From positions 1 to 22,296 of the forward strand of contig JAHQWW010000059.1 of assembly GCA_029856365.1 (NCBI GenBank): a stretch of 22,296 nt of DNA. The letters are read 5' to 3'. Source of the stretch: Candidatus Hodarchaeota archaeon (GTDB lineage: Archaea > Asgardarchaeota > Heimdallarchaeia > Hodarchaeales > Hodarchaeaceae). Positions 1 through 15,709 of this stretch are shown in pieces (position 1 is the first letter of the stretch; each line of letters opens with the position of its first letter). Made by a program: the position numbers and the translations under genes. Under the pieces are notes generated by a model that was not told where the DNA came from, searched no databases, and saw only the letters and a list, made by a program, of their open reading frames with translations.

Positions 1-616
1 CGGGAGGGAACATATCATCCCAGGATTCAACACCGTATTTTTCAATTAGTTGTTTCTCTGCTTCTTTGAAACGTTTAGGGTGCCAGTCTCTAATAATTGT
101 ATTCATTGGGTGATCAGCTGATCCACAATCGACACCTATCCATTTGAACTCCATATCCATTGCCCATTGGGGGAAGTCTTTATCTGGTCCTGGATGTTTG
201 ACAAAATATCTCAACTCATCGCTCTCAGGTTGATCCCAAGCATAGCGCTGATAACCTGTCTTTATAAGGAGAATATCACCGCTTCTGATATCAGCTCTTT
301 CCATCAACATGTCTGGAGAATAGAGATCGTAATCAGTTAATGTTTCAGAAAGATCTACAACGACTCCAGGCCCACAAAATTCTTCCAGCTCCATGTCTCC
401 AATAGTTCGCCCAGCTGCAAAAAAATGAATTTCCCCATCAATATGTGTTCCCACATGATTGCTGGTAGTCAATATCTGCCCGTTAGCTCCTTGCCCCATA
501 TGTGCTCCTGCGATTCGTTTGAAATATTGTAATTGCAAAGGAACATAGCTTGGCCATGGAGGCGTATGGATAGAGAGACGTTGGGTTAAATCTATCATTC
601 GAAAAGATTTCGACAT
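1..616 (-). CDS. Cyclase family / kynurenine formamidase-like metal-dependent amidohydrolase (3' end lies outside the window)
   Basis: Not in the ORF track. Hand translation from ATG at 616 gives MSKSFRMIDLTQRLSIHTPPWPSY...TSNHVGTHIDGEIHF...GPGVVVDLS...GDILLIKTG...HPGP...WIGVDCGSADHPMNT and stays open for 205 codons to the edge. HxGTHxD, DLT/PxWP and GVD are Cyclase-family motifs. Confidence 0.92.
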   Translation of the reverse strand, partial: MSKSFRMIDLTQRLSIHTPPWPSYVPLQLQYFKRIAGAHMGQGANGQILTTSNHVGTHIDGEIHFFAAGRTIGDMELEEFCGPGVVVDLSETLTDYDLYSPDMLMERADIRSGDILLIKTGYQRYAWDQPESDELRYFVKHPGPDKDFPQWAMDMEFKWIGVDCGSADHPMNTIIRDWHPKRFKEAEKQLIEKYGVESWDDMFPP

Positions 617-780
617 TTTTTACCACAACAATAGATTAAATTAAGTGATTAGTAGTATACCTTCCTCTTGGATGAACTATTTTAGGATATTGCTCTTATT
701 TTCGTTCAAAGTCAGCATTACTTTTTTGTACTTAAGTTAGATATTTTTTATATTTTCCCGAGTAGTCGACCCAATTGGTT

Positions 781-828
781 GCATCTATATTTTCGTGTCA
801 TTTAGGAATCTTTGTCACTTATAGATGC
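781..828. promoter_or_regulatory. 9-bp inverted repeat GCATCTATA-N30-TATAGATGC in the divergent cyclase/eutA intergenic region
   Basis: Arms at 781-789 and 820-828 are exact reverse complements. The spacer contains TGTCA twice. A regulatory function is inferred only. Confidence 0.3.
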
Positions 829-910
829 TTTTCATTGATTAGTATTAACTATTAGGACATAAGATTAAAAATGTCTATTAGAAACTACCCGATAGGAAGC
901 AGATCTCGCA

Positions 911-2359
911 ATGATATCAACAGAAGTAGAGAAACGAATTTCTAGTGTCGGTATTGATGTGGGAACTAGTACATCTCATTTGATTTTCTCAGAATTAGTG
1001 TTAAGGAAGGATCCAAGCTCAAGAACAGAGAAATATCATGTTGCAGAGAGAAATATTCAGTATCGAGGAAATATCTTTTTCACTCCACTCACAGATAAAA
1101 ATGAGATAAATTTAGAAGAATTAATCCAGTATCTATTAAATGAATACGAAAAAGCTGGCAAAAACACAACAGAAATTGATACAGGAGCTGTTATAATTAC
1201 TGGAGAGTCAGCCAAGAAAGAGAATGCAGAAAAGATTATAGAAATTTTAGCTCGAAAAACAGGGAAATTTGTAGCTGCTAGTGCTGGGCCTAATTTTGAA
1301 TCAATCATTTCTGCTTATGGCTCTGGAGCAGTAAATTATTCTCATAAACATTCTTGTAAAGTTATTCATTCTGATGTAGGAGGGGGAACTTCAAATACTG
1401 CAGTTATCAATAATGGAGAGATAATAGCAACAGCTTGTATTAATGTTGGAGGTCGACTTTTTATTTTTAATGATAAGGATGAAATTATCCGATTAGAACC
1501 TGCTGGGAAAATTACATTAAAGCATTGTAAATTAGATTTAAGAATAGGGGACATTGTTACATCACAACAAAAGAATCAAATTGCCCATAAATTAGCATCC
1601 GCTTTACTAGAAGTTATTACAGGCCAAGAATTGTCAGCTTTTACAAAAGAACTTATGATAACAGCTCCAATCCCTACTGAAAGTCTTAAAGAAAAATCAT
1701 TTTGGAGTTTTTCTGGGGGTGTAGCAGAATATATTTATCAAAAAAATACTAAAAATTATAATGATCTCGGAGAACAATTAGGTTACCAAATTCGATCACT
1801 GATTGAAGAATATAAACACAGTTGGATTGAAGTGCCCGAGAAAATCCGAGCGACTGTTATAGGTGCAAGTGAATATACGTTACAAGTAAGTGGATCCACA
1901 ACTTTCATGTCACCTAAAACAAAAGAGTCATTTTTTCCTATTAGAAATTTACCCATTGTTACACCAATAATTCAACAACAGATGCTATCAGAAGAATATG
2001 TTGCTACTCAAATTTCGACTGCATTAAAAAGACTTGACCTTCTTGAGGGGGAGGTGCCTTTAGCGTTAGCGTTTCATGATCCAGTTAGAACAGTTTACGA
2101 AAAATTAACGACATTTTCAAAGGGAATAGTAAAAGCTCTACCTAAAACGATCTTAAATAATAAACCCATTATAATGATATTTGATACGGATATTGGGAAC
2201 TCAGTAGGCAATGTTCTTCATCGGGTAACGGGGTTACAAAATAATATTCTGTCTATCGATGAGATTTCTTTGAAAGAAGGTGATTTCATTGATATTGGTC
2301 AGCCTGTTGTTAACAATCGGGTTTTTCCAGTTGTTATAAAATCTCTGGTTTTTGGATGA
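911..2359 (+). CDS. eutA: EutA-like ASKHA-superfamily ATPase (ethanolamine ammonia-lyase reactivating factor family)
   Basis: SVGIDVGTSTSHLIFS (phosphate-1), IITGESAKKENA, AGPNFESIISAYGSGA, DVGGGTSN (phosphate-2), NVGGRL, FSGGVAEY, IRATVIGA, and the C-terminal DFIDIGQP...PVVIKSLVF typical of EutA. 482 aa. Confidence 0.9.
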   Translation: MISTEVEKRISSVGIDVGTSTSHLIFSELVLRKDPSSRTEKYHVAERNIQYRGNIFFTPLTDKNEINLEELIQYLLNEYEKAGKNTTEIDTGAVIITGESAKKENAEKIIEILARKTGKFVAASAGPNFESIISAYGSGAVNYSHKHSCKVIHSDVGGGTSNTAVINNGEIIATACINVGGRLFIFNDKDEIIRLEPAGKITLKHCKLDLRIGDIVTSQQKNQIAHKLASALLEVITGQELSAFTKELMITAPIPTESLKEKSFWSFSGGVAEYIYQKNTKNYNDLGEQLGYQIRSLIEEYKHSWIEVPEKIRATVIGASEYTLQVSGSTTFMSPKTKESFFPIRNLPIVTPIIQQQMLSEEYVATQISTALKRLDLLEGEVPLALAFHDPVRTVYEKLTTFSKGIVKALPKTILNNKPIIMIFDTDIGNSVGNVLHRVTGLQNNILSIDEISLKEGDFIDIGQPVVNNRVFPVVIKSLVFG

Positions 2360-2365
2360 TAAATA

Positions 2366-2860
2366 ATGAAAATCCTAGGATTGATTTCCGATACTCATAT
2401 ACCCTCTCGACAAAAAAAACTTCCAAATTCGGTTATAAAGTCATTTTCAGAAGTAAGTGTCGATCTAATTATTCATGCAGGGGATTTAGAGGAATTATCA
2501 GTAGCTTCAGCACTTGAAGAGATTGCTCCACTCAAAGCTGTACAGGGGAACATGTGCAATAGCTCAGTAAAGAAAAGATATCCAAAGAAAGAAATTATAT
2601 CAATAGAAGATTTAGTAATTGGGGTGACCCATGGGAGTGGAAGCCCTACTGGATATCACAAACGTGTAATAAGTGAATTCAACAAAGATCCACGGCCTGA
2701 TATCATTGTAAGTGGGCATACACATCAACCCAACGCCAAAATTGAAAATAATATCCTGTTAATTAATCCGGGTACGCCCACAGACAGATATTTTGCCTCC
2801 CGTAACACAATAGCAGTCCTAGAAATTGATGGAAAGGACTATAAATATTATTTCATCTAA
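2366..2860 (+). CDS. YfcE/MJ0936/Vps29-family metallophosphoesterase
   Basis: Calcineurin-like motifs SDTH, HAGD, GN, HG, GHTH and INPG. It starts 6 nt after the eutA stop, so the two are probably co-transcribed. Confidence 0.9.
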   Translation: MKILGLISDTHIPSRQKKLPNSVIKSFSEVSVDLIIHAGDLEELSVASALEEIAPLKAVQGNMCNSSVKKRYPKKEIISIEDLVIGVTHGSGSPTGYHKRVISEFNKDPRPDIIVSGHTHQPNAKIENNILLINPGTPTDRYFASRNTIAVLEIDGKDYKYYFI

Positions 2861-2884
2861 ATAAAATGAACTTGAAAATTGTCA

Positions 2885-3361
2885 TTATTTTGATTTCAAT
2901 AATTCTTGAGCAAGTAACGCAGCATCGAAAATCGGTTTATACCCTGTGCAACGGCATAAATGCTCACCCAGTGCTGATTTAATTTCCTGTTCTGAGGCGT
3001 TAGGGTTCCTTTCATAAAGAGCATAAAGCTCCATAATGTATCCTGGAGTACAAAAACCACATTGAACCGCAGTGGCTTTAATGAAGGCTTCCTGAATTGG
3101 ATGTAACTTATCATCAGGGGATTGGGGAGAAATTCCTTCAATTGTTATCACATTTCCTCCTTCAAGCTTTTTGGGTCTAATAAGACAGGATTTAACAGCC
3201 TTACCGTTTAAAACAACAGTACATGCTCCGCAATGACCCTGATTACACCCATTTTTTGTTCCAGTTAAATTGAGCTTTTCACGAAGAATTGATAGCAGTG
3301 AATCCTTAGGATCAACTGTTAGTGTGTATTTTCTCCCATTGACAACAAGGTTAACCTCCAT
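2885..3361 (-). CDS. 2x[2Fe-2S] small subunit of a xanthine-oxidase-family molybdenum hydroxylase (CoxS/XdhC-like)
   Basis: TGTKNGCNQGHCGAC..C and QCGFCTPG...CRCTGY cluster-binding motifs. An AGGAG SD lies within the end of the upstream gene. Confidence 0.95.
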   Translation of the reverse strand: MEVNLVVNGRKYTLTVDPKDSLLSILREKLNLTGTKNGCNQGHCGACTVVLNGKAVKSCLIRPKKLEGGNVITIEGISPQSPDDKLHPIQEAFIKATAVQCGFCTPGYIMELYALYERNPNASEQEIKSALGEHLCRCTGYKPIFDAALLAQELLKSK

Positions 3362-3365
3362 ACCA

Positions 3366-5687
3366 TCAACTCCTCTCTTTTAAACATTCCAATACCTTTT
3401 CAGGGGTCACTGGTAATTTTGTTAATGATATTCCAGTAGCATATTGGAAAGCATTGAGAATAGCAGGAGGTACACCAATAATGGGGTGTTCAGCCATCGG
3501 TCTAGCTCCAAATGGCCCGTTTGGTTGAATATTTTCGACTAGAATACAAGTGAACTTATCTGGCATATCGAATATTGTAGGGATCTGATATCGCTTTAAA
3601 TTTGTCGTTTTCATGATTCCATATTCGTCAAAAAGGATTTTCTCTTTTACTGCAGCTCCTATACCCATTAAAACTCCCCCAGTGATTTGACCAATTACAG
3701 TTTCAGGATTAATCACCTTGCCAATATCTAGAGCTGTAACAAAATGTAGAACTCTTATTCTTCCAGTAGCTTTCTCAATACTTATATCACAACCTTGTGC
3801 TCCAAAAGTCCATTCATAAGGCTGGTATTGTCCTGTTTCGAGGTTTGGAAGGGTGACATCTCGAACAACAGAGGATCCAATCGCTAGAACTGGATCACCT
3901 ACAGTGTGACCATCTTCGTATTGATATCCAAGAACGAGATTTTCTAGTGGAATAGATTCATCCTTATAGGAAACAGTTCTCCCATCATACACCAAATCAT
4001 CAAAATCGCAATTAAAGACTAATGCAGCGTTGTTTTTGAACTGTGTAATTGCTTTATCACAAGCAGCGATTATAGCATTTCCAACCCTCATTGTGGTCAT
4101 ACTTGCGACAGTCTGCCATTCATAGGGAGTTAATTGTGAGTTAATTTCGTAATTAATACGAATTTTTTCCACAGAAACCTTCAGAGATTCAGCTGCAATT
4201 TGAGCTAGAACCGTTAGACACCCTTGTCCCATTTCGGTCCCTCCGGTAGAAATATTAACGGTTAAATCTTCATTGAATTTCAAAAAAACGTTTGATGAAG
4301 CATTTGCAGCTTGTACGGGTGATTTGACTAAGGCAGCAATCCCTCTTCCATATATATATCGATCATCTTTTTCTGGTAATGGATCTACTTCAAGAACCTT
4401 AATCATTTTTTCGAAACATTCTCTAATATCGCCATTATCAGTGGTAATTTTTTGACCTAAAGAATTGGTATCCCCAGGTTTAAGGAAATTCTTCATACGA
4501 ATTTCTCTTGAATTTATTTCAAGTTTAAGCGCGAGTTGTTCAATTAATCTTTCAATCATAAATTGCCCTTCAGGATGACCATAACCTCTCATTGCTCCCA
4601 CAGGTGGAGTGTTTGTATATACACCAAACGATTGGAGACTACAATTAGGAAAATAGTAGGGGCCAGCGCAGTTATGACCTGCTGCCAAGACTACATTGCA
4701 ACTCGTATCTGCATATGCTCCATCAGAGAAATACAATTGAGCTTCGAGTCCTACAAAGATTCCATCTTGTTTTGCACCGATTTTCATTCTTCCTTTTAGA
4801 CCTCGGCCTAACACAGTGCCAATGAACACTTCTTTTCGGGTAAGGCGGAATTTTAGATAATATCCTGGGACATATCGAGCGCAAAGCGCTAAAAGGGGTT
4901 CAATTGTATAATCTGATTTACCTCCAAATCCACCTCCAAGAAATGGAACATTCACCTGAATTTTATTCATCGAAAGTTTGAACATGTCTGCAAGGACTTC
5001 TCGCACAACAAATGGCGCTTGGGAACTACTCCATATATGTAACTCCCCAGTATGATCCCAGTGAGCCACTGCTCCGTGAGGTTCAATTGCTGCATGATTC
5101 ATTAATGGATATTCAAATTCATCCTCAACAATCACAGCAGCTTCTTGAAATACATTTTCATGATCTCCTTTCTTCAAATGATATTTATAAAAAATATTTG
5201 ATTTTGGTATAGGAATAAAAGTTGAAAGATGTTTATACTCACCATTTCGTTTATGAATAAGAGGTGCTTTTGAAGAAGTAGCCTCAATTGGATCTAGTAC
5301 AAAGGGTAATTCTACGAGTTCTACTTTTATTTTCTTTACTGCTTCTAATGCTTTCTTCTCACTCTCTGCTATAACAGCTGCTACTACCTCACCTGCATGT
5401 CTAATCTTGTCAAATGCTATTGGAGGTTGATCAAAAATACAAGTTCCATATAATAAGGTTTTCTCGACCCTTTTTGTATTTCTACTAATGATTTTATATA
5501 CTCCTTCTATTGACTCTGCCTCAGTTGTATCAATCGATTTAATCTGAGCATGAGGCACACCAGCACGCAAAACTTTTAGGTAAAGTGTTCGTGGGAATCG
5601 TAAATCATCAATATAAATGGCAGCACCAGTTACCTTTTCCTTGGCGTCTGCTCGTATAATCGATCTTCCAACAACATTGTAAGACAT
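3366..5687 (-). CDS. Xanthine dehydrogenase/aldehyde oxidase family molybdopterin-binding large subunit
   Basis: KVTGAAIYIDD, HAAIEPH, SSQAP, GGGFGGK, AMRGYGHPE, TEMGQG, ASMTT, INP...GQITGG, GPFGARPMAEHP. 773 aa. Confidence 0.95.
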   Translation of the reverse strand: MSYNVVGRSIIRADAKEKVTGAAIYIDDLRFPRTLYLKVLRAGVPHAQIKSIDTTEAESIEGVYKIISRNTKRVEKTLLYGTCIFDQPPIAFDKIRHAGEVVAAVIAESEKKALEAVKKIKVELVELPFVLDPIEATSSKAPLIHKRNGEYKHLSTFIPIPKSNIFYKYHLKKGDHENVFQEAAVIVEDEFEYPLMNHAAIEPHGAVAHWDHTGELHIWSSSQAPFVVREVLADMFKLSMNKIQVNVPFLGGGFGGKSDYTIEPLLALCARYVPGYYLKFRLTRKEVFIGTVLGRGLKGRMKIGAKQDGIFVGLEAQLYFSDGAYADTSCNVVLAAGHNCAGPYYFPNCSLQSFGVYTNTPPVGAMRGYGHPEGQFMIERLIEQLALKLEINSREIRMKNFLKPGDTNSLGQKITTDNGDIRECFEKMIKVLEVDPLPEKDDRYIYGRGIAALVKSPVQAANASSNVFLKFNEDLTVNISTGGTEMGQGCLTVLAQIAAESLKVSVEKIRINYEINSQLTPYEWQTVASMTTMRVGNAIIAACDKAITQFKNNAALVFNCDFDDLVYDGRTVSYKDESIPLENLVLGYQYEDGHTVGDPVLAIGSSVVRDVTLPNLETGQYQPYEWTFGAQGCDISIEKATGRIRVLHFVTALDIGKVINPETVIGQITGGVLMGIGAAVKEKILFDEYGIMKTTNLKRYQIPTIFDMPDKFTCILVENIQPNGPFGARPMAEHPIIGVPPAILNAFQYATGISLTKLPVTPEKVLECLKERS

Positions 5688-5819
5688 TAGATTAACCCCA
5701 ATAAAAATAGGTTTTCTGATTTTTAATTTAAATGTATTGCTAGGCCTAGAAGGATAAAGCTAAAAGGTAAAGAAATCAACAACAACAGACATCTTAGTTT
5801 AGTAAGTAATGATGAGAGT

Positions 5820-7079
5820 TTGATCGATATGCATGATATTTTGTTAAATGAAAGTGAGAGAGAATTGAAGAACCAAGCCCGAGAATTTATAAAATCAATT
5901 CCTTCATCCTGGTTACGAAAAATGGATCAAAACGAGATCCAATATCCTACTGATTATGTGAAAGCGGTAGCTGAAAAGAAACTCCTTGGTATTCGCTTTC
6001 CTAAAGAGTACGGTGGTCAGGGATTAGGATGGATTGCAGAAGTATCCATACTAGAGGAGATTGGTGTTCTCGGGGCATCCCTTGGATGCTTGTATTCTCT
6101 ACCCAGTATTGTTGGCGAGGCAATTAATATATTTGGTAATGAAGAACAGAAAAGAGAATACTTGGAACCAATCATCAGAGGAAAACTGTTTTGTGCAGAA
6201 GCTCTAACTGAACCAAGAGGAGGTTCCGATTTCTTTGGAGCCACCTGTACTGCGGAAAGACAAGGTGATGTATTTATTTTAAATGGACAAAAAAGATTTG
6301 TCGTGGGATCTGAAGGAGCAGACGTGTTTCTTGTCTATGCGAAAACTGATTTGAAAGCTAAAGATCCCAGAAAATCTATTAGCACTTTTATTGTCAGGCG
6401 AGATGTAGGAGTAGAGGTGAAACATGTTTATGGATTAATGGGTACTCGTGGAGGAGGTACTGGAAGATTAAATTTCAATAATGTTGAGGTTCCAATGAAG
6501 AATTTAATAGGGGAGCTCAACCAGGGTGGTGAAATATTCAATCAGATGATGATTCCAGAGCGAATGACTAGTGCTGCGGGAGCTATTGGTGCAGCAAGAG
6601 CTGGTTTTGAAGTTGCAGCTAGATATAGCAATCGTAGAAAAGCTTTTGGCCAACTTATCAGAAGATTTCAAGGAGTGAGTTTTAAACTAGCGGATAGCAT
6701 AACGTTACTTGATGCCGCTAGATCATTAGTTTTTACAACCGCAAAGACTATAGAATCCAATAAGGGCTTTACTAGTGGAGAAATCCGTCGAAAGGTTTCT
6801 GAAACCAAAAAATTTGCCACTGATTCAGCTTGGGCAGTTATTAACCATGCAATGCAGATTATGGGGGGAATTGGATATACTAATGTATACCCTGTTGAAC
6901 GACTATTAAGAGACATTAGATTAATGACGATTTGGACTGGAACTAATGAAATTATGAATCTACTCATTCAACATGAGTACTATCGTGAATTTCTCAAACG
7001 ACCTCAAGAATTGATACCTCGTAACATCGAACAGGATGCAGTTGGAGCAGAATTCGAAGAAGAAAAGATCTTTGAATGA
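5820..7079 (+). CDS. Acyl-CoA dehydrogenase family flavoprotein
   Basis: [64 protein letters not shown]. Start is TTG 5820 or ATG 5829. Confidence 0.95.
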
Positions 7080-7164
7080 AGATCCTAGTGAAAATCTTGT
7101 TTAACTAAATTTGAAAAGAATCTAAGGATTTAGATAACAAGGAGAGTATCAGAGAGTAATTTTC

Positions 7165-8742
7165 ATGTTTAGTGTTAAAACACATATAATTCGACAGCTA
7201 TACCGTGATTCAGTCCAACTAATGCGAGCCGCATCTGCAGCAAACAAATTAGAGGGAATCAAAATCGCTTCGGTTTTCATGGGTACTCCAAAAAATAAAT
7301 CTTTATTAGAAGAAGTAGGTCTTCTGACTCCTGAAGCCCAAAATGCAAAATCAAATGATATTATTATATCAGTTCATGCAGACACGAAATCCAATGCTTC
7401 TAAAGCTATTCAATATATAATCGATTTGATTTCTCAAGAAGTCACTACCCTAAAGGAAGTGGCTATATATCGATCAATACGGGGTGCTTTAACAGGATTA
7501 ACTGATGCTAATTTGGCTGTGATTTCTATCCCAGGAGAATTTGCTGCACGAGAAACTCGCTTGGCATTAGAACAGAATCTAAATGTAATGTTGTTCTCTG
7601 ACAATGTACCGATTGAGGATGAAATTGCCCTGAAAAACAAAGCTCATGAGGAGGGATTGATAGTGATGGGACCTGATTGTGGTACTGCCATGATTAAAAA
7701 CGTTGGGTTGGGTTTTGCAAATGTAGTAATGCCAGGACCAATTGGGATTGTAGCAGCTTCTGGCACTGGAACCCAAGAGGTTATGGTATTATGTCATCAG
7801 AGGGGAATTGGTGTTACTCATGCAATTGGAACTGGATCACGAGATATAAAAGATTCTGTTGGTGGTGTAACAATGATTGACGGTCTGCATGGCCTTGATC
7901 ATGATCCTACAGTCCAATCAATAGTTATAGTCTCAAAACCCCCAGATAATAAAACTCTCCAAAAAGTCTTAGAAGAAGTACAAATATGTTCAAAACCTGT
8001 TATAATTAATTTTCTTGGAAAAAAGGCTGGATACTGCGATCATCCTGGAAAAACTCTTACTGTCAATACTTTAGAAGAGGTTGCTTATTCTGCTTCACAT
8101 TTCATACAATCTAAAGAACTTAAACGGATTTCTGTTATCTTTGATGATTATGAGGAAATTAAACGCATTCTATCCAAAACTAAATCTATCTTAATGCCCG
8201 AACAGAAGTATATTAGAGGATTATTTGCTGGAGGTACGTTTACTTACGAAGCAGCAATGATTATCTCTGACATTTTACGTCCAACTGAATCATTATGGAC
8301 AAATGTTAACTTAGGGGGAACAAAACAGATTGAAAATCCAAATATGAGTAGGGAGCATACTTTGATTGATATGGGGGCAGATGAATTCACTGTTGGAAAA
8401 CCTCATCCGATGATCGATCAAACAGAACGTACTCGGAGATTTTTGAAGGAAATTAAAGACCCTCAGACTGCGGTTATTTTAATAGACTTCGTCTTCGGCT
8501 GGGGATCCCATATCGATCCATTAACAGATATGCAAGATGCCTTCACTCAATGGGAATTGCTCGATCGAAATATTCCTATAGTAACACATCTCTGTGGAAC
8601 TGAGCTCGATCCTCAGGATTTAAACAAATCAATTCCGACATTAGAGGACTTAGGAATTTATGTTATGCCCACAAATGCTCAAGCAGCAAGGTTAGCTGCC
8701 TTAATCGCAACACGTGGAGACCTGAATCAATTAATGAAATAG
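7165..8742 (+). CDS. fdrA: FdrA/YahF-family protein (succinyl-CoA synthetase alpha-like; AllF-type subunit)
   Basis: YRDSVQLM, MGTPKNK, ISIPGEFAA.E, FSDNV..EDE..LK, MGPDCGT, AASGTGTQE, GTGSRD, SKPP, GLFAGGT, DMGADEFTVGKPHPMID, DFVFGWGSH.DP, GTELDPQ. Confidence 0.92.
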   Translation: MFSVKTHIIRQLYRDSVQLMRAASAANKLEGIKIASVFMGTPKNKSLLEEVGLLTPEAQNAKSNDIIISVHADTKSNASKAIQYIIDLISQEVTTLKEVAIYRSIRGALTGLTDANLAVISIPGEFAARETRLALEQNLNVMLFSDNVPIEDEIALKNKAHEEGLIVMGPDCGTAMIKNVGLGFANVVMPGPIGIVAASGTGTQEVMVLCHQRGIGVTHAIGTGSRDIKDSVGGVTMIDGLHGLDHDPTVQSIVIVSKPPDNKTLQKVLEEVQICSKPVIINFLGKKAGYCDHPGKTLTVNTLEEVAYSASHFIQSKELKRISVIFDDYEEIKRILSKTKSILMPEQKYIRGLFAGGTFTYEAAMIISDILRPTESLWTNVNLGGTKQIENPNMSREHTLIDMGADEFTVGKPHPMIDQTERTRRFLKEIKDPQTAVILIDFVFGWGSHIDPLTDMQDAFTQWELLDRNIPIVTHLCGTELDPQDLNKSIPTLEDLGIYVMPTNAQAARLAALIATRGDLNQLMK

Positions 8743-8752
8743 GTGGATAAAG

Positions 8753-8923
8753 TTGGAGAAGTTAGATAAGCTGTTATCAACTGGACCAAAAGTTCTAAAT
8801 ATTGGATTACAATCGTTCTATGAATCATGTGAAACACAGGGAATACCTACTGTTCATATCCGTTGGGAACCTCCTGCCCAAGGTAACCCTGAGCTTCTAT
8901 CCTTATTAGATAAATTGCTTTAA
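8753..8923 (+). CDS. Small stand-alone FdrA-domain protein (56 aa)
   Basis: Not in the ORF track. TTG start preceded by AGGTGG SD; MEKLDKLLSTGPKVLNIGLQSFYESCETQGIPTVHIRWEPPAQGNPELLSLLDKLL. It matches the N(I/V)GL..F...QG..V...W.PPA.G motif found at the FdrA C-terminus or YahG N-terminus, and it fills the gap between fdrA and the DUF1116 gene. Confidence 0.85.
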   Translation: MEKLDKLLSTGPKVLNIGLQSFYESCETQGIPTVHIRWEPPAQGNPELLSLLDKLL

Positions 8924-8956
8924 TAGCCATACCCAAAGATTGAGGAATGGATTCTA

Positions 8957-10210
8957 ATGAACATTAAAAAGAAGATAGAACAAGCAAATGAAGTGGCATT
9001 AGAGCGAATGTCGAATGTTCAACCAATTCTAGTGGATATAGAGCTAGAAGCAATGAATGTAATTCCTGCGATGGATAAGAAAACCATTCTTCACGCGGGA
9101 CCACCAATTGATTGGGGTCGAATGTGTGGCCCGACACAAGGAGCCATAGCAGGAATCCTTGTTTATGAAGGATTAGCTGCTAATATTGAAGAAGGATATG
9201 AATTAGCAGCTTCGGGGGAGATAAAATTTGATTGCAACCATGATCATGATACGGTTGGGCCAATGACAGGAGTCACCTCTCCTCACCAACCTGTATTTGT
9301 CCTAGAAGATCGAGAAAATGGAAGAAAATCTTATTGTACCTTAAATGAAGGCAGAGGAAAAGTTTTACGCTTTGGTGGGTGGGATTTTGAAGTATTAGAT
9401 AGACTCAACTGGATGAAGGATATTTTAGCACCTGCCCTGAAAAAGGCAGTAAATCACGCTAAGGGTATTGATATTAAATCTATTATTTCTGAATCCCTAC
9501 ACATGGGAGACGAGGCTCATAATCGAAATAGATCAGGTTCATATCTTTTTATGAGAGAGATTACTCCACATCTTATGGATACAGTTGATGTTTCCACAGC
9601 TAAGGAAGTTTTCCTGTTCTTGACACAAAATGCGGACATATTTAACTTAAATCTCTCTATGCCTCACTCAAAGTTAATAGCTGACGCTGCTCGTGACATT
9701 GATTATTGTTCACTTGTTGTAGCTATGGCTCGTAATGGAACCGACATAGGAATTCAAGTTTCAGCTCTTGGTCGGGAATGGTTCACCTCACCAGCAACAA
9801 TGGTAGATGGGTTATACTTTCCTGGCTTCTCTGAAGAGGATGCCTGTCCTGACTTAGGTGATTCAACTATATCAGAAGTAATAGGAATTGGGGGATTCTC
9901 AATGGCCTCGTCTCCAGCCATTGTTTCGTTTGTAGGAGGGTCTGCTTCTGAAGCAGTATCACGAACCGAACGAATGTATGAAATTACAGCTGGTAAAAGT
10001 AAAACTTTTACCATCCCAAGTTTAAATTTTCGTGGAGCTCCAACAGGAATTGATATTCGGAAAGTTGTAGAACTAAATGAACCGCCATTAATAAATACAG
10101 GAATTGCTCATAAAGAAGCTGGAATTGGTCAAATTGGAGCAGGACTCACATCTGCACCCCTAGAGATGTTTCATGAAGCGTTGAAATCTTTTGGCAAAAA
10201 ATACTTATAA
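8957..10210 (+). CDS. ylbE: DUF1116 family protein (YlbE/YahG/AllG-like)
   Basis: IEQAN..A, ILHAGPPI.W..MCGP.QGA, VGPMTGV.S, LNEGRGKVLRFG, HMGDEAHNRN, MARNGTDIG, DLGDSTISE..GIGGF, PTGID, P.INTGIAHK..G.GQIGAG. GAGG SD upstream. Confidence 0.92.
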   Translation: MNIKKKIEQANEVALERMSNVQPILVDIELEAMNVIPAMDKKTILHAGPPIDWGRMCGPTQGAIAGILVYEGLAANIEEGYELAASGEIKFDCNHDHDTVGPMTGVTSPHQPVFVLEDRENGRKSYCTLNEGRGKVLRFGGWDFEVLDRLNWMKDILAPALKKAVNHAKGIDIKSIISESLHMGDEAHNRNRSGSYLFMREITPHLMDTVDVSTAKEVFLFLTQNADIFNLNLSMPHSKLIADAARDIDYCSLVVAMARNGTDIGIQVSALGREWFTSPATMVDGLYFPGFSEEDACPDLGDSTISEVIGIGGFSMASSPAIVSFVGGSASEAVSRTERMYEITAGKSKTFTIPSLNFRGAPTGIDIRKVVELNEPPLINTGIAHKEAGIGQIGAGLTSAPLEMFHEALKSFGKKYL

Positions 10211-10343: not shown

Positions 10344-10784
10344 TTGTCGGTTGCAGCAACACCTTTGGCTTCGATTGCCACTTCAGCTTCCGTTCTTACT
10401 TTTTTATCTTTACAACTATTTCTAAACAGTTCTCAATCAATAATAAGATTATTAGCGGGAATGAATATTATTTTTCTTCTTGTAATAGTATTCATTTCAC
10501 TTTTCTTTCAAATTATGATTTATAGGGCAAAATTACGATTATCTCGTGTAAACCATGATCTTAAATCCCAAGGAATACTGGAATGTGAGGAATTTTCGGA
10601 TGAGCAATATTCTCACCTTATCAAAATGAGCCATCTAGCCCAGAGTGGCATAAAAACGATTGATCGCATTCAATGGTTGTACATCCATGATTTATGGCGC
10701 ATATTGTATGCATTTTTGATAATATGTATTTCACTTCTCATCCTACTTATTCTGTCAGAGATTCCATTTAGATTACAATCATGA
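10344..10784 (+). CDS. Hypothetical membrane protein (about 3 TM helices); possibly the downstream part of an interrupted gene starting at 10248
   Basis: Hydrophobic segments at both ends. The TTG start has no obvious SD. An in-frame ATG at 10248 is separated from it by a single TAA (10308-10310). Confidence 0.6.
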   Translation: MSVAATPLASIATSASVLTFLSLQLFLNSSQSIIRLLAGMNIIFLLVIVFISLFFQIMIYRAKLRLSRVNHDLKSQGILECEEFSDEQYSHLIKMSHLAQSGIKTIDRIQWLYIHDLWRILYAFLIICISLLILLILSEIPFRLQS

Positions 10785-10830: not shown

Positions 10831-11934
10831 TTATTTTTCTTTTTTTGCTCGTTGACGTAAGATAGCAACCCTAAACCCAAGAAAAGACGATTGATTGTAT
10901 GATACGGGAGAAGGGATTGTTGAAGGTAATTTTCTTAATGTATCAGCCAGAACTGTATTACCAATTGCCATCGCACTATAATCATCGGCACGTATTTCAG
11001 CGAGGAAGATCCGATAATAGTGAAAAATAGATAGAAAGGCCGAACTAAGAAATACGAGAAAAATAAGATTAATAAACAACAAGGAAAAGATGGGATCTAA
11101 AGTAAAAATTGTCTGTTCCTGCATTAATAGAATTAATCCTGTAAAAACACAAAATATTCTCATTATACGCAAAAAAGCTTCAGTGCCTCCAATTAGATAA
11201 GATTTCTTTATGTGATTATTAGCTATATGACCGATTTCATGCAGAATAACTGCAATTAACTCTTCATCTGTTAGTTTCCAATTAAAATACCTGGAGATAA
11301 GACAAATATTCCTTTTCCAACCATAAGACATAACACCAGCACTCAGAAACAGAGAAGGAAGTTGAACATCTGCAAAGCGATATTCGGAAATCATTTGGCT
11401 TTTCGGATGATTAAGCTCAACTTGGTCAATGATTTCACTACTCACTGCCTCTTGAGCCGTGGAAAGCAATTCTTGTTTATTTATGATAGATTTTACAAGA
11501 AAATAACTTTGTACTCCCAATGAAATGATTATGGAGAGCCCCAAATAATCCCATGGTTCTAAAATTTCGATAATATTGAATACTCTAAGGATAATCGTCA
11601 ATATAAAACCTACAAATATGACATAATAGACTTGTCTAATAAGATGTAAGCCCATTTCGTACCAAGAGGGTATAAAATGAAAATATTTAACTTCTAAAGC
11701 ATAATCCCGCAAATTCTTGAAAGATTGGTAAAATAAAAGGCCAGTAAATAGGAAGGGAAAAATGAGAATGAGATCAAGAAATAATAGATAGTGAATTTCA
11801 TTGTTTAATAATACACCTAAGAAAATGAATGATAAACCCGCGAAAAGTGGGTAAAAGAAAAAATAAAGAGTAAGCAACATGACGTCGCTGATAGGTAAAG
11901 AAACGCCTAAAGATCGATCAGATTCTCTAAACAT
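10831..11934 (-). CDS. M48-family (HtpX/Ste24-like) membrane zinc metallopeptidase
   Basis: Several TM helices, LTDEELIAVILHEIGH (HExxH), and downstream EIRAD..S followed by LADTLRKL. Confidence 0.85.
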   Translation of the reverse strand: MFRESDRSLGVSLPISDVMLLTLYFFFYPLFAGLSFIFLGVLLNNEIHYLLFLDLILIFPFLFTGLLFYQSFKNLRDYALEVKYFHFIPSWYEMGLHLIRQVYYVIFVGFILTIILRVFNIIEILEPWDYLGLSIIISLGVQSYFLVKSIINKQELLSTAQEAVSSEIIDQVELNHPKSQMISEYRFADVQLPSLFLSAGVMSYGWKRNICLISRYFNWKLTDEELIAVILHEIGHIANNHIKKSYLIGGTEAFLRIMRIFCVFTGLILLMQEQTIFTLDPIFSLLFINLIFLVFLSSAFLSIFHYYRIFLAEIRADDYSAMAIGNTVLADTLRKLPSTIPSPVSYNQSSFLGFRVAILRQRAKKEK

Positions 11935-12152: not shown

Positions 12153-12587
12153 ATGTTATTGGGAAGTAAAGAACATTTACTTGAAATTAAAAAAAGAGTT
12201 AATGCAAATGAAGAGTATTTACAAATGACTAAAGGGGAAGGAAAAAAATCCTTTACCTTTATATTGGAACCAGAAATCAAAAAAAATGTTACAGAAACGA
12301 TTCGTATTGGATATAAAGAGAATGATGGTGTAATTGAGGAAATTTGGGAGGGTGAACAAGAGACAGAATTTATTATTACGGGAAAATATGGTAACTGGGT
12401 CAAAATACTCCGTCAAGAGCTGGGGGCTACGAAAGCTCTCACAATGCGTAAACTTAAACTCAAAAAAGGTAGTCTCATAAAACTTCTTCGAACTAGTGAC
12501 AGTACAATAAAATGGATTCAAATCCTCGCCAGTATTCCAGTGGAATTTCATGGAGATTATGCTTCATTATCGACAACCGAGGAATGA
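12153..12587 (+). CDS. SCP2 sterol/lipid-binding domain protein
   Basis: GGAGG SD. The pattern ETEFIITGKYGNWVKILRQELGATKALTMRKLKLK fits the SCP2 C-terminal consensus (xDFxIxGxYxxWxxxxxGxLxxxxAxxxGKLKxxG). Confidence 0.75.
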   Translation: MLLGSKEHLLEIKKRVNANEEYLQMTKGEGKKSFTFILEPEIKKNVTETIRIGYKENDGVIEEIWEGEQETEFIITGKYGNWVKILRQELGATKALTMRKLKLKKGSLIKLLRTSDSTIKWIQILASIPVEFHGDYASLSTTEE

Positions 12588-12594
12588 ATTTATT

Positions 12595-13464
12595 ATGGAC
12601 ATTCTAAAATTAGAAAATAAAGTAGCTATAGTCACAGGTGGAGCCTCTGGAATTGGTGCAGCGGTTGTGGCTCAATTTACTGACCTGGGTATGAAAGTTG
12701 TAATTGCGGATCTTGATGAGGATTTAGGGGGAAAACTAGAACAGAAATTAGTAGATAAAGGAAAAGAATGCTTTTTTCACCAACTAGATGTTTCAAAATC
12801 TGATCAAGTTTCTACTCTAGTTAAAACAACACTAAATAGATATCAAACAATTGATATTCTTGTCAATTGTGCTGGAGTAGGTGGACTCTCTGGCTATTTA
12901 GACTTAATCGAAGAAGAGTGGGATTGGATCCTCGACACGAATTTAAAGGGAACGCACCTTATGTGTTTTGCTGTGGGTCAAATTATGGTTGAAAAAGGTG
13001 TAAAAGGTCGGATCGTCAACATTTCTAGTATAAATGATGAAATCCCCGTCGTCGGGATTGCTGCTTATGCTACAAGTAAAGCTGGGATATCAGGTTTGAC
13101 ACGTGCACTGGCTTTAGAACTTGCTCCTTATGGCATAAATGTAAATGCTATCCGTCCAGGAACTATTGTCACCCCATTAATGAAAGAACCGCTGGAACTA
13201 CCAGATCTGGCACAAGCATTGATCCGACAAATCCCTCGCGGTCGCTTTGGTCACCCTAAAGATGTGGCTAATGTAATAACATTCTTGGTTTCAGATCTAG
13301 GAGAATGGGTAACCGGAGCAGTCATTCCTGTAACTGGTGGTATGCATCTTGTTGGAGAAACTTCTTTCTACTATTTTTTTGAACGAGCAATGATGCATGA
13401 AGATCAACTCCCTGATATACCTTTTTGTCGGCCCTGGAAGAAATTTGACCTTTCTAAATTTTAG
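12595..13464 (+). CDS. Classical short-chain dehydrogenase/reductase (FabG/glucose-1-dehydrogenase-like, probably NAD-dependent)
   Basis: VTGGASGIG, IADLD (acidic residue, NAD preference), LDVS, NCAG, NISS, YATSK, VNAIRPG, GRFG.P.DVA. Start moved from 12550 to ATG 12595, which removes the overlap with SCP2 and follows GAGG. Confidence 0.93.
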   Translation: MDILKLENKVAIVTGGASGIGAAVVAQFTDLGMKVVIADLDEDLGGKLEQKLVDKGKECFFHQLDVSKSDQVSTLVKTTLNRYQTIDILVNCAGVGGLSGYLDLIEEEWDWILDTNLKGTHLMCFAVGQIMVEKGVKGRIVNISSINDEIPVVGIAAYATSKAGISGLTRALALELAPYGINVNAIRPGTIVTPLMKEPLELPDLAQALIRQIPRGRFGHPKDVANVITFLVSDLGEWVTGAVIPVTGGMHLVGETSFYYFFERAMMHEDQLPDIPFCRPWKKFDLSKF

Positions 13465-13508
13465 AAAAATCAAAAAATGAATAAGCTTTTAGGAATAAAT
13501 ACACGATC

Positions 13509-13949
13509 TCAATCCTGTTTCATGAAAAATTGATAACGTCCAAACCATGCTAGTAAAAAAATCCCTCCAATTAGTGCAGCTAAATTGATTACAATAGCTA
13601 GTAAATCATATTGATAAACTCCCTGTTGCAGATTGAACGTTATATCTATCAATCCTAAAAATACAAATGCGCCACCCGCAGCTGCAGCAAAAAAGGAACC
13701 ATACGACTTCTCATTCAAAACTCCAAATGCAGAAATGAGTAACAAAATTACTATCCAAGAATCAGCAACAGGAAAAGAAGACTCAAATGCGATGTACACA
13801 TCATATAATTGATCCCCTGGTTCAAATGATTTTAAAATATCAAAGAACCATCCAATCCAAAATCCAATCAGCAATAAAGCTCCAATAATTTCACAGATAG
13901 CAATAATCCTATCATTCCTTGAATAAATTGACTTCATTATTCTTTTCAT
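13509..13949 (-). CDS. Hypothetical 4-TM membrane protein
   Basis: Four hydrophobic helices and a conserved-looking loop FESSFPVADSW. It starts 10 nt after the upstream SDR. Confidence 0.75.
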   Translation of the reverse strand: MKRIMKSIYSRNDRIIAICEIIGALLLIGFWIGWFFDILKSFEPGDQLYDVYIAFESSFPVADSWIVILLLISAFGVLNEKSYGSFFAAAAGGAFVFLGLIDITFNLQQGVYQYDLLAIVINLAALIGGIFLLAWFGRYQFFMKQD

Positions 13950-13959
13950 CCTTTATTAA

Positions 13960-14940
13960 CTATAATCCATAGAACATTGCCATGATTCGTGTCGTTAGAT
14001 TCTCAGAAAAAAATCGTTTCATTAAATTTACTCCCCATATTTGAAGTTTAGATCCAGACTTATAATGGATTTTTGGACGTTTTGCTCTTATAATCTTTTC
14101 AACTTTTTTCGACACTATTATTGGAGGAGGACTTACGATTAAATTTCGCATTATTGTTTTCCAAGCTATTTTTCCATGGTTATAATATACTGAATTTTTT
14201 TCTAATGGAATCGCATCAATCATGTCTTTAATATCAGTGGATTTGAATTTCTTGTCCTTTTTATAGAGACATGCTGTAACCGCATTACCAGGAGTATTGA
14301 TATCTCCAGGGAGGAGAGAGGATACCCGAATGTTAAATGGTCTTAATTCAATTTTCAAACTTTCTGTTAACCGTAATATTGCTGCTTTGGATGCTGAATA
14401 ATAAGCCATGAAAGGAATTGCAGAAAGGCCTGCAAGTGATGAAGTGTTGATGATTTGTCCGTTCATTTGCTCCCGCATATTAGGTAATACTGCTTGAATT
14501 ACTCGAATGTAACCAAAGAAATTGACCTCAAATTGATCTTGAATGGCTTCTAAAGAATATGTTTCTATAGGGCCAAAATGAGCAAGCCCCGCATTATTAA
14601 TAAGAACATCAATATTGTCTAAATCTTGGATAGCACTGGTCACAGAGTTCATCTTAGTAACATTCATAGAAATATATTGAATATCTTCTAAATACTTATC
14701 TAAGTTCTGGTTAATTTTGGTTGAAATAAGGATTTTACTTGGCCTTACTTCTGTTTTGGCACTGTCAATATAATAATACTTTGTATGGTCTTGAATATAT
14801 GATTCTTTGAGCTGTTCTAGATCAATATTTTCAACTTGACGTGAGGTTCCAATTACAGAGTAACCTCGAGAGGTTAAATAGATAGCATGCGATAATCCCA
14901 TCCCTGATGTAGCACCAGTAATCAAAACTTGCTTATTCAT
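13960..14940 (-). CDS. Short-chain dehydrogenase/reductase (17beta-HSD/retinol-dehydrogenase-like subgroup, probably NADP-dependent) with an insertion
   Basis: ITGATSGMG, GTSR, LINNAG, FEVNFFG.IRVIQAVLP.MR, NTSS, YSASK, PGDINT. GGAG SD upstream. Confidence 0.92.
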   Translation of the reverse strand: MNKQVLITGATSGMGLSHAIYLTSRGYSVIGTSRQVENIDLEQLKESYIQDHTKYYYIDSAKTEVRPSKILISTKINQNLDKYLEDIQYISMNVTKMNSVTSAIQDLDNIDVLINNAGLAHFGPIETYSLEAIQDQFEVNFFGYIRVIQAVLPNMREQMNGQIINTSSLAGLSAIPFMAYYSASKAAILRLTESLKIELRPFNIRVSSLLPGDINTPGNAVTACLYKKDKKFKSTDIKDMIDAIPLEKNSVYYNHGKIAWKTIMRNLIVSPPPIIVSKKVEKIIRAKRPKIHYKSGSKLQIWGVNLMKRFFSENLTTRIMAMFYGL

Positions 14941-15166: not shown

Positions 15167-15709
15167 ATGTCCTTCCCAATGAAAATAGTTCTCATTGGTG
15201 ATCATCGAAAATCTGAAATACTACAATATTATGGAGATATTTATCGAAGTAATATCACGTTTATAGCTGTAGCAGATCTGGCTTTTAAGGTGATGAATAT
15301 AGGAGGGAATACATTCAACTTTCAGGTTTGGCAATTATCAGAAGACCCGGATTTTGAATTGGAGAGAAGAAGATACCATTATGGAGCGTTAGGAGCAATT
15401 ATAGTTTTCGATGTTACAACCGAGAGTTTTCAGAATATCATTTCATGGTTAAATGAAATATGGTCTTATAATGGAATGGAAAAATCAATTCCAATTGTTA
15501 TTGCAGGGATAAATATTCGTAAAAGATCAAATGCTCAGAAACCCATCTTTGATGAAGAAGTATGGAAGTTTACAAAGGAAATGAATCAGAAATATCAAGC
15601 AAATATAATGTATATTCCTGTTGATGAATACACAGGAGAGAATGTAGCTCAAATCTGGGAAACATTAGGGGAATGGTACATTAGATATTTACAGCAGTTA
15701 GAATCATAA
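15167..15709 (+). CDS. Rab/Ras-like small GTPase-fold protein with degenerate nucleotide-binding motifs (probable pseudo-GTPase)
   Basis: The scaffold KIVLIGD...FQVW...RYHYGALGAIIVFDVT.ESFQNI.SWL.EI...IPIVIAG...TGENV...E.L is Rab-like, but G1-G5 are all altered. GAGG SD upstream. Confidence 0.85.
   Translation: MSFPMKIVLIGDHRKSEILQYYGDIYRSNITFIAVADLAFKVMNIGGNTFNFQVWQLSEDPDFELERRRYHYGALGAIIVFDVTTESFQNIISWLNEIWSYNGMEKSIPIVIAGINIRKRSNAQKPIFDEEVWKFTKEMNQKYQANIMYIPVDEYTGENVAQIWETLGEWYIRYLQQLES

Follow-up and report, generated by a model that had tools for sequence, protein, structure and literature searches.

Introduction

Aerobic actinobacteria break down pyrimidines oxidatively through uracil/thymine dehydrogenase (EC 1.17.99.4), barbiturase and ureidomalonase. 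In E. coli, AllF, AllG and AllH together form the oxamic transcarbamylase, for which all three genes are required and which has been assayed with oxamate, carbamoyl phosphate and Mg2+ in Tris buffer only, without CoA (Kim & Kim 2024, PMC11326118). Homologues of AllF (FdrA) and AllG (DUF1116) are encoded close to a cyclase-family hydrolase, an EutA-like protein, a molybdenum hydroxylase and an acyl-CoA dehydrogenase (ACAD) on contig JAHQWW010000059.1 of a Candidatus Hodarchaeota archaeon (assembly GCA_029856365.1), a member of the Asgard archaea. This contig (G000:C66; 22,296 nucleotides, 22.3 kb) is the window analysed here in its entirety; the host metagenome-assembled genome (MAG) is 83.6% complete and consists of 204 contigs. 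The original prediction, made from the letters of the DNA, had proposed nine adjacent genes of the window as a candidate cluster for the catabolism of an N-heterocycle. Homologues carrying the labels Hodarchaeales or Heimdallarchaeota agree with the Asgard origin that it assumed. We lean, with a little more than even confidence, towards a mosaic instead, in which AllF, its detached tail and AllG, together with the cyclase, are pieces of a bacterial cluster scattered in the genome of an Asgard archaeon. At the core stands a known enzyme family, AllFGH; the Asgard variant is dispersed, and the bacterial cluster is recurrent yet undescribed, since we found no published description of a bacterial AllF/AllG/cyclase/Mo-hydroxylase cluster, only the biochemistry of E. 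coli allFGH.

Results

AllF, its tail and AllG belong to a recurring bacterial cluster

Gene families were assigned by Pfam and NCBIfam searches of the window proteins. AllF (7165-8742, + strand; 525 aa) is a succinyl-CoA-synthetase-alpha-like protein with CoA_binding and Ligase_CoA domains, which reaches 443 bits with PRK06091 (cut-off 433) and matches E. coli FdrA (PDB 3DMY) at E 4.8e-71. It is followed by a 56-aa gene (8753-8923, +) that aligns with positions 505-554 of the 555 positions of PRK06091 (E 4e-8), and by AllG (8957-10210, +; PF06545, 283.3 bits, cut-off 27). Since the 56-aa open reading frame (ORF) covers the last ~50 positions of PRK06091, FdrA is naturally split in this archaeon; judged by its alignment, the small protein is the detached C-terminal tail of an E. 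coli-type FdrA, encoded by a separate gene in this subfamily. The tail aligned apart from FdrA in each of the 13 FdrA-bearing Asgard loci, its frame differs from that of FdrA in three of the four relatives in which frames were compared, and a gene of 56-58 aa is called at the equivalent place in Koleobacter and Frackibacter.

Contiguous AllF, ~56-aa tail and AllG, present here at 7165-10210, are also found in Koleobacter, in Frackibacter and in many of 80 bacterial DUF1116 (AllG) loci, which were drawn from GTDB species genomes across many bacterial phyla and scored with the window proteins and with reference proteins of Koleobacter and Frackibacter. FdrA is present in 60 of the 80 loci and the cyclase in 55; the tail is detected by tblastn in 37, a large, molybdenum-cofactor (MoCo) subunit of the xanthine dehydrogenase (XDH) family in 37 (accompanied by a FAD subunit in 36 of the 37), and an NCS2 permease in 30. 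AllH, sought with a purpose-built profile, occurs in 44 of the 56 loci with sufficient upstream sequence, and the cyclase starts at about -81 to +231 bp from the end of AllG in 46 of the 55 cyclase loci. FdrA, tail, AllG and cyclase characterise a cluster that is widespread in bacteria and that usually includes AllH, a three-subunit hydroxylase and an NCS2 permease. No ACAD, EutA or YfcE phosphoesterase was found in any of the 80 loci. Of the gene combination originally proposed, therefore, the cyclase, FdrA with its tail, DUF1116 and a Mo-hydroxylase do recur in many bacterial phyla, and EutA, the phosphoesterase and ACAD do not recur with them.

AllG is a single-copy gene in the host genome and is 50-57% identical to its bacterial and Bathyarchaeia homologues. 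We found it in 17 of the 22 genomes, some of them incomplete, that were compared within one Hodarchaeales genus, and in none of 19 genomes drawn from other families of the class. In the AllG tree the Asgard sequences are monophyletic and sit on a long branch amid sequences of bacteria and Bathyarchaeia. Because the homologues outside the genus are overwhelmingly bacterial, we infer acquisition by transfer. One genome, G017, carries an AllG (contig G017:C284; L004/L029) that is 93% identical to that of the window, whereas its ACAD is only 80% identical; another of its contigs (G017:C91) holds an EutA-ACAD-SCP2-short-chain dehydrogenase locus without FdrA-AllG. The AllG contig of G017 is probably mis-binned or recently transferred.

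The block lies between two resident genes

A tenth gene, beyond the nine of the original prediction, lies 3' of AllG: orf146 (10344-10784, +) encodes a predicted three-helix membrane protein of 146 aa, with three hydrophobic segments and no Pfam or NCBIfam match, and is located after AllG in each of the relatives examined. The order ACAD-FdrA-tail-AllG-orf146 is seen in eight of the 13 Asgard loci with FdrA; in the other five, the fetched sequence stops at or just past AllG, or no orf146 match passes the filter. In G001, a genome in which AllG was not found, an orf146 homologue (45% identity) lies directly 3' of ACAD. From this arrangement it follows that FdrA-tail-AllG is a discrete block, inserted or deleted between the resident genes ACAD and orf146, the latter being the marker of its right edge, and that the nearness of the block to ACAD requires no functional explanation. 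As a candidate for a hidden AllH, orf146 was rejected, being a membrane protein without a match to the AllH profile.

The cyclase is related to cluster-linked bacterial cyclases

The cyclase gene (2-616, - strand) is broken at position 1, which is the end of the contig, so that its C-terminus is cut off. The protein matches PF04199 (110.9 bits), carries the HxGTHxD metal motif and is up to 76% identical to bacterial cyclases encoded directly 3' of AllG. In the cyclase tree it is nested, with 95% support, within a group of bacterial cyclases linked to the cluster (Caldisericota, Cloacimonadota, PVC, Elusimicrobiota and others). We propose that it may be the ring-opening hydrolase of the module. 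Fold family and HxGTHxD motif are common to the window cyclase and to kynurenine formamidase and isatin hydrolase (PF04199, PDB 4cob), although the match to 4cob is weak and limited to the N-terminal 110 residues (E 1.9e-8); set against kynurenine formamidase, the cyclase type found here (269 aa) has an extra C-terminal region and a context of AllFG, not of tryptophan catabolism.

Unlike its bacterial relatives, the cyclase gene is not directly 3' of AllG in the window; it lies 6.5 kb upstream on the opposite strand, and in other species of the genus 13-27 kb or further from the block. It was found in 15 of the 22 genus genomes, and was not found in G001, G016 and G004 or in the fragmentary, AllG-positive G003, G008, G017 and G021. 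On a shared history of these genes the outcome is divided: FastTree places the cyclase and AllG differently, yet an approximately unbiased (AU) test does not reject a placement of AllG with the bacterial relatives of the cyclase (p = 0.415). Discordant origins were dropped on that account, and since the test is non-rejecting we claim neither co-transfer nor separate transfer for the two genes. The closed relative G009 has its cyclase far from the cluster and with an in-frame TAA (G009:C1:4257803-4258606), and a second cyclase fragment with a TGA (G009:C1:804555-804815); the cyclase of this genome may be decaying.

Two kinds of Mo-hydroxylase

The hydroxylase encoded in the window consists of a 2Fe-2S small subunit (2885-3361, - strand; Fer2 and Fer2_2) and a MoCo-binding large subunit (3366-5687, -; PF01315, PF02738 and PF20256), which always occur as a pair, in the genus as well as in bacterial relatives. 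The pair has what defines the XDH family, that is, the three domains of the large subunit and the catalytic Glu, which is E733, invariant and aligned with the Glu of the GxGE motif in the C160 enzyme described below; the absence of this residue, suggested by a regular-expression scan, was rejected because the alignment shows it to be kept. The enzyme differs from canonical xanthine dehydrogenase in that it has no FAD subunit and no Glu802-type residue and falls short of the XDH equivalog cut-offs. No FAD_binding_5 gene occurs in the 22-kb window. The residue after GGGFGGK, at a position that we take to be that of Glu802 of xanthine dehydrogenase in bovine numbering, is Ser in the window enzyme and Ala in the C160 type. 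The large subunit misses the family-specific NCBIfam cut-offs by a wide margin, and its best match in the PDB is the alpha subunit of Thauera 4-hydroxybenzoyl-CoA reductase (1rm6, 305 bits), from which the window enzyme differs in having no counterpart of the reductase beta subunit. It resembles the Desulfovibrio gigas aldehyde oxidoreductase (PDB 1sij/1vlb) in having no FAD module; in contrast to such FAD-less or atypical members of the family, it is made of two separate subunits, not of one chain. In each of the three contexts looked at, bacterial relatives of the window enzyme (50-54% identity) are likewise MoCo-Fer2 pairs with no FAD gene, so that being FAD-less is characteristic of the subfamily and does not reflect a loss in this cluster. 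The three contexts are mutually unrelated, and no recurrent neighbourhood was found for this enzyme.

A hydroxylase of the kind found in the bacterial cluster is encoded elsewhere in the host genome. The three-subunit (Mo, FAD, 2Fe-2S) XDH-family enzyme at G000:C160:27931-31618 (L204:7905-11619; large subunit 29237-31618) outscores the window enzyme on all 37 MoCo subunits of the bacterial cluster, to which the window enzyme is only 35-41% identical. It stands alone, flanked by an ARMT1-like phosphatase and a 465-aa protein without a family match. Among its closest relatives outside the genus (49-53% identity), five lie beside cyclase, FdrA, tail, AllG or AllH, namely four with sufficient fetched flank, from three Bathyarchaeia loci (L260, L261, L262) and a Hadarchaeum locus (L267), and a more distant bacterial one (L268); no module gene was found beside four archaeal relatives, on shorter contigs, or beside two bacterial ones. 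By sequence, then, the hydroxylase matching the cluster is the C160 enzyme and not the FAD-less one of the window, in which no adjacent three-subunit hydroxylase of the cluster subfamily occurs. The original assignment of the FAD-less enzyme as the hydroxylase of the module is not supported by this bacterial correspondence.

The window-type hydroxylase was found in 19 of the 22 genus genomes. Its distance from ACAD varies between 0.1 and 10 kb across species, with unrelated cargo in several of them, as in L017:5168-8151 (G011), L195:8365-12759 (G019) and L196:6973-13705 (G002). In one species the gap holds larE-larB-larC, for synthesis of the nickel-pincer cofactor; elsewhere it holds genes for a LarA-like protein, 6-phosphogluconate dehydrogenase, an FGGY kinase, a class II aldolase, 2-hydroxyacid dehydrogenases and a tungsten aldehyde oxidoreductase.

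Other candidate parts of the module are unlinked, and two were found only with AllG

An AllH-domain protein (PF11392, DUF2877; 48 bits, cut-off 25) is encoded at G000:C195:3-467 and, in the closed relative G009, at L027:9764-10306, ~190 kb from the cluster; no AllH was found in the window or in the clusters of relatives. The AllH-like proteins have 184-215 aa, which correspond to the C-terminal ~180 of 310 profile positions, and keep the motifs G-x-G-S-T-P-x-S-D-D and G-A-S-S-G. Their genes are always accompanied by those of an AMP phosphorylase (TIGR03327, 537 bits, cut-off 535), of a paralogue of that enzyme and of a HAD hydrolase. Prediction of a complex between AllG and the AllH-like protein gave a score of 0.00, which we take to weigh neither way. 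A carbamate kinase is encoded on contig C94 (TIGR00746, 359.9 bits, cut-off 358.25), where its neighbours (C94:2884-13804; L205) are genes for a hydantoinase/dihydropyrimidinase (TIGR02033, 430 bits, cut-off 393) and for two carbamoyltransferases of the OTC family, neither of which passes a specific cut-off; the locus resembles a second catabolic route, leading to carbamoyl phosphate. YlbF/DUF2877 and carbamate kinase, which the original prediction had reported as absent from the window, are encoded elsewhere in the genome.

Within the genus, the distribution of the C160-type hydroxylase follows that of AllG as far as could be seen. The C160-type MoCo subunit is found in 14 of the 22 genomes and the short AllH-domain protein in 11; all of these genomes are AllG-positive, and neither gene was found in any of the five AllG-negative ones. 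Carbamate kinase is present in 20 of 22. In G001 (94% complete) and G016 (90% complete), AllG, the cyclase, both types of hydroxylase and the AllH-like protein were all not found, and EutA, ACAD, orf146 and carbamate kinase are retained. The ACAD tree shows the two genomes as sisters (100/100), joined by the module-bearing G021 (94/89). G015 keeps ACAD, the window-type hydroxylase and a cyclase, and FdrA-AllG is absent from its locus.

The remaining neighbours are probably resident genes

The EutA-like protein (911-2359, + strand) is an ASKHA ATPase (PF06277, 456 bits) that remains below every NCBIfam EutA equivalog cut-off, the best model giving 389 bits against 598, and EutB was not found in the host genome, at its 83.6% completeness. 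Its relatives at 50-60% identity come from Bathyarchaeota and from other Asgard MAGs, in which it has no conserved context and no EutBC, and a search for close relatives by DNA pattern returned only the genus and two distant clostridial EutA. By its closest relatives outside the genus, the EutA-like protein belongs to an archaeal family. It is present in 20 of the 22 genus genomes, including G001 and G016, and is probably a resident gene outside the module. A longer EutA-like paralogue (~690-aa frame; G000:C133:7642-9048), 39% identical, is conserved in several genus genomes. The YfcE-type metallophosphoesterase gene that follows (2366-2860, +; PF12850, 119.8 bits; TIGR00040, 102.9 bits, cut-off 56) is probably co-transcribed with EutA and outside the module; it is absent or a remnant in G009 and G010.

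ACAD (5820-7079, + strand; PF02771, PF02770 and PF00441, the N-terminal, middle and C-terminal domains) is 57-66% identical to ACADs of many bacterial phyla, among which no conserved neighbourhood was found. It reaches the cut-off of no subfamily model, the best being acryloyl-CoA reductase with 255 bits against 640, and is present in 20 of the 22 genus genomes, G001 and G016 included. We regard it as probably a resident gene that FdrA-tail-AllG abuts, and not as a pathway member. The differing affinities of AllG, the cyclase, the EutA-like protein and ACAD fit a mosaic. The ACAD orthologue of G010 (G010:C9:446274-447524) has one in-frame TGA.

All nine genes first named in the window were matched to families by Pfam or NCBIfam at the coordinates given above, and the layout first described was confirmed, with four units and with divergent intergenic regions at 617-910 and 5688-5819. 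No RNA gene was found in the window by Rfam and tRNA scans. To the right of orf146 lie a protein of 367 aa that weakly matches M48 peptidases (10831-11934), present in G007 and negative by tblastn in the other three relatives compared, and then an SCP2-domain protein with two short-chain dehydrogenases (12153-14940), syntenic with the ACAD region in several species; the SCP2 protein, the short-chain dehydrogenases and ACAD may form a lipid- or acyl-CoA-related set. Ras/Roc-type small GTPases are common in Asgard archaea, and one of this family is encoded at 15167-15709.

Sequence to the left of position 1 was approached through relatives and through contig C167 of the host genome. Beyond the cyclase, G007 and G011 have PEMT, a large hypothetical protein, a PqqD-like protein and ABC transporters. 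At the end of contig C167 stand PEMT and the C-terminus of a cyclase, in the order seen in G007; the contig also carries ABC transporters, ADH and a HAD hydrolase. Its end (G000:C167:45671-45989) and window positions 1-130 overlap over ~130 nt in diverged form, with no exact overlap and no blastn match, which points either to co-assembled strains, C167 then being the neighbour in a variant, or to two copies of the cyclase; we use C167 as probable context only. Neither on this probable neighbour nor in the flanks of relatives did we find a canonical allantoin or purine operon beyond position 1, so that the original prediction is not refuted on this count.

Discussion

The analysis supports the part of the original prediction that saw in this region an N-heterocycle or ureide module distinct from the canonical allantoin operon, and redraws its membership. 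In the mosaic that we favour, the module would be in a scattered state, with AllF-tail-AllG between ACAD and orf146, the cyclase 6.5 kb off, the hydroxylase on C160, the AllH-like protein on C195 and carbamate kinase on C94. The three-subunit Mo-hydroxylase would introduce a water-derived oxo group into a nucleobase-like ring, for which the conversion of uracil or thymine to (5-methyl)barbiturate would be the most economical fit. The cyclase-type metal hydrolase would then open the cyclic imide to give an N-acyl-urea, for example ureidomalonate, and AllF, the tail and AllG, probably with the AllH-like protein, would cleave this product with phosphate to carbamoyl phosphate and an amide, in the way that E. 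coli AllFGH acts on oxalurate. Carbamate kinase would finally turn carbamoyl phosphate into ATP, NH3 and CO2. The substrate is probably a pyrimidine, which is a guess from the genes; the position of the AllH-like gene beside an AMP phosphorylase, which releases bases from nucleotides, agrees with uracil or thymine. The EutA-like protein with the phosphoesterase, ACAD and orf146 are probably neighbours by descent and not members of the pathway.

The bacterial cluster and the Asgard genes have in common the AllF-tail-AllG order, the cyclase clade, the hydroxylase subfamily of C160 and the presence of an AllH-domain protein in the genome. They differ in that the Asgard genes are spread over at least four contigs and not joined in one operon, in that no permease was found and AllH is shortened, in that the host is an Asgard archaeon, and in that an unrelated FAD-less hydroxylase, ACAD and the EutA-like protein lie between or beside the pieces. 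With the allFGHK genes of E. coli (Kim & Kim 2024, PMC11326118) the archaeon shares homologues of AllF and AllG and, elsewhere in the genome, an AllH-domain protein and carbamate kinase, and the common chemistry is likely the phosphorolysis of an N-acyl-urea to carbamoyl phosphate. In contrast to E. coli, AllF consists of a body of 525 aa and a tail encoded by its own 56-aa gene, the AllH-like gene and carbamate kinase are both unlinked, the former with a product that is without the N-terminal ~125 positions and the latter beside other carbamoyltransferases, and no allantoin genes are nearby. Oxalurate derived from allantoin is probably not the substrate, given that the relatives are associated with a cyclase and a Mo-hydroxylase. 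The oxidative pyrimidine pathway of actinobacteria, likewise, employs a Mo-hydroxylase to make barbiturate and a hydrolytic opening to ureidomalonate, as we propose here. The ring opener in our case has the cyclase/kynurenine-formamidase fold, however, and not the barbiturase/cyanuric-acid-hydrolase fold, and the ureido group would leave as ATP-yielding carbamoyl phosphate, not as urea.

Three other explanations of the locus deserve consideration. That all nine genes form one pathway, in which the FAD-less hydroxylase and the cyclase are followed by activation to a CoA thioester by FdrA/DUF1116 and by oxidation by ACAD, appears highly improbable to us. The genes are adjacent, FdrA has CoA_binding and Ligase_CoA domains, the window-type hydroxylase was not found in G001, G004 and G016, where AllG is also lacking, and the closest relative of this hydroxylase in the PDB, 4-hydroxybenzoyl-CoA reductase, acts on a CoA thioester. 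ACAD and FdrA, moreover, are co-oriented at 28-130 bp in most species; in G013, however, a 99-aa ORF and ~450 bp separate them, and the gap is of similar size in G002 and G018. ACAD, EutA and the phosphoesterase accompany AllG in none of the 80 bacterial loci, the bacterial ACAD relatives have no conserved context of their own, and genes for sugar acids and for the nickel-pincer cofactor stand between ACAD and the hydroxylase in several species. In G001 and G016, ACAD and EutA persist without the module, and ACAD abuts orf146 there. As for a CoA-thioester step ahead of ACAD, it is unsupported, since the E. coli AllFGH assay requires no CoA (PMC11326118). Alternatively, FdrA-tail-AllG could be an ordinary oxamate carbamoyltransferase, which, as in E. 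coli, would turn oxalurate into oxamate together with carbamoyl phosphate at the end of allantoin or purine breakdown. Family membership of AllF and AllG, the AllH-like protein and carbamate kinase in the genome, other XDH-family enzymes on C50, the hydantoinase/carbamoyltransferase/carbamate-kinase locus of C94 and an Ldh_2-family dehydrogenase on C73 all agree with such a function. We nevertheless consider it distinctly unlikely. AllC was not found in the ~84%-complete genome (allantoinase itself was not searched for), the amidohydrolase of C94 passes the dihydropyrimidinase/hydantoinase cut-off and misses that for allantoinase, and Ldh_2 proteins are common in archaea and have other roles. 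The AllG subfamily, in addition, is tied to the cyclase and to a hydroxylase not of the xanthine type rather than to allantoin genes, and at an identity of only 50-57% to bacterial AllG the substrate specificity may differ.

It is also conceivable, though unlikely, that in this genus the FAD-less hydroxylase of the window has assumed, or takes part in, the module's hydroxylation step and passes electrons to ferredoxin or another acceptor in place of a FAD subunit. Where both are placed on a contig, this enzyme lies 0.1-10 kb from ACAD-FdrA-AllG in nine of 12 genomes, and it retains its catalytic Glu and a wide distribution in the genus. It belongs to another subfamily, however, which the C160 enzyme outmatches against every cluster MoCo subunit; its bacterial relatives are stand-alone pairs in unrelated contexts; it is kept in G015, and probably in G006, where FdrA-AllG is absent; and variable cargo separates it from the block. 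A further scenario, which we hold to be quite improbable, is that Hodarchaeales rebuilt the pathway, having recruited the FAD-less hydroxylase and ACAD into a CoA-dependent or ferredoxin-linked branch found in no bacterium, with a half-size AllH or none, as a dispersed regulon. Were this true, an operon would have become a dispersed regulon in the archaeal group closest to eukaryotes, serving the ATP-yielding breakdown of bases released by AMP phosphorylase.

Several observations also weigh against the mosaic that we prefer. The short, co-oriented spacing of ACAD and FdrA may reflect co-transcription. The FAD-less hydroxylase co-varies with the module and lies near it, and it may take part in the module after all. 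Co-loss rests essentially on one lineage, that of G001 and G016, and on incomplete genomes, and closely related genomes are not independent of one another. The AllH-like protein is without the N-terminal ~125 positions of bacterial AllH and was not found in six of the 17 AllG-positive genomes, and an NCS2 permease (PF00860) was not found in the host genome as far as it is complete. Finally, xanthine-permease models gave better scores than uracil-permease models, below the cut-off for both, with the one bacterial permease that was typed, which thus leans towards xanthine, and PucR-type regulators, present in 14 of the 80 bacterial loci, hint at purines.

Co-loss provides an argument, independent of adjacency, for membership of the C160-type hydroxylase, the cyclase, AllF-tail-AllG and AllH in one module, and it also marks ACAD and EutA as non-members. 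The locus carries a warning, in that adjacency within one strongly syntenic genus can suggest pathways that do not exist. The bacterial cluster is common in anaerobes of many phyla and may turn the ureido group of a nucleobase into ATP independently of oxygen. Its genes reached Asgard archaea, where the former operon now exists as unlinked pieces that are kept or lost together.

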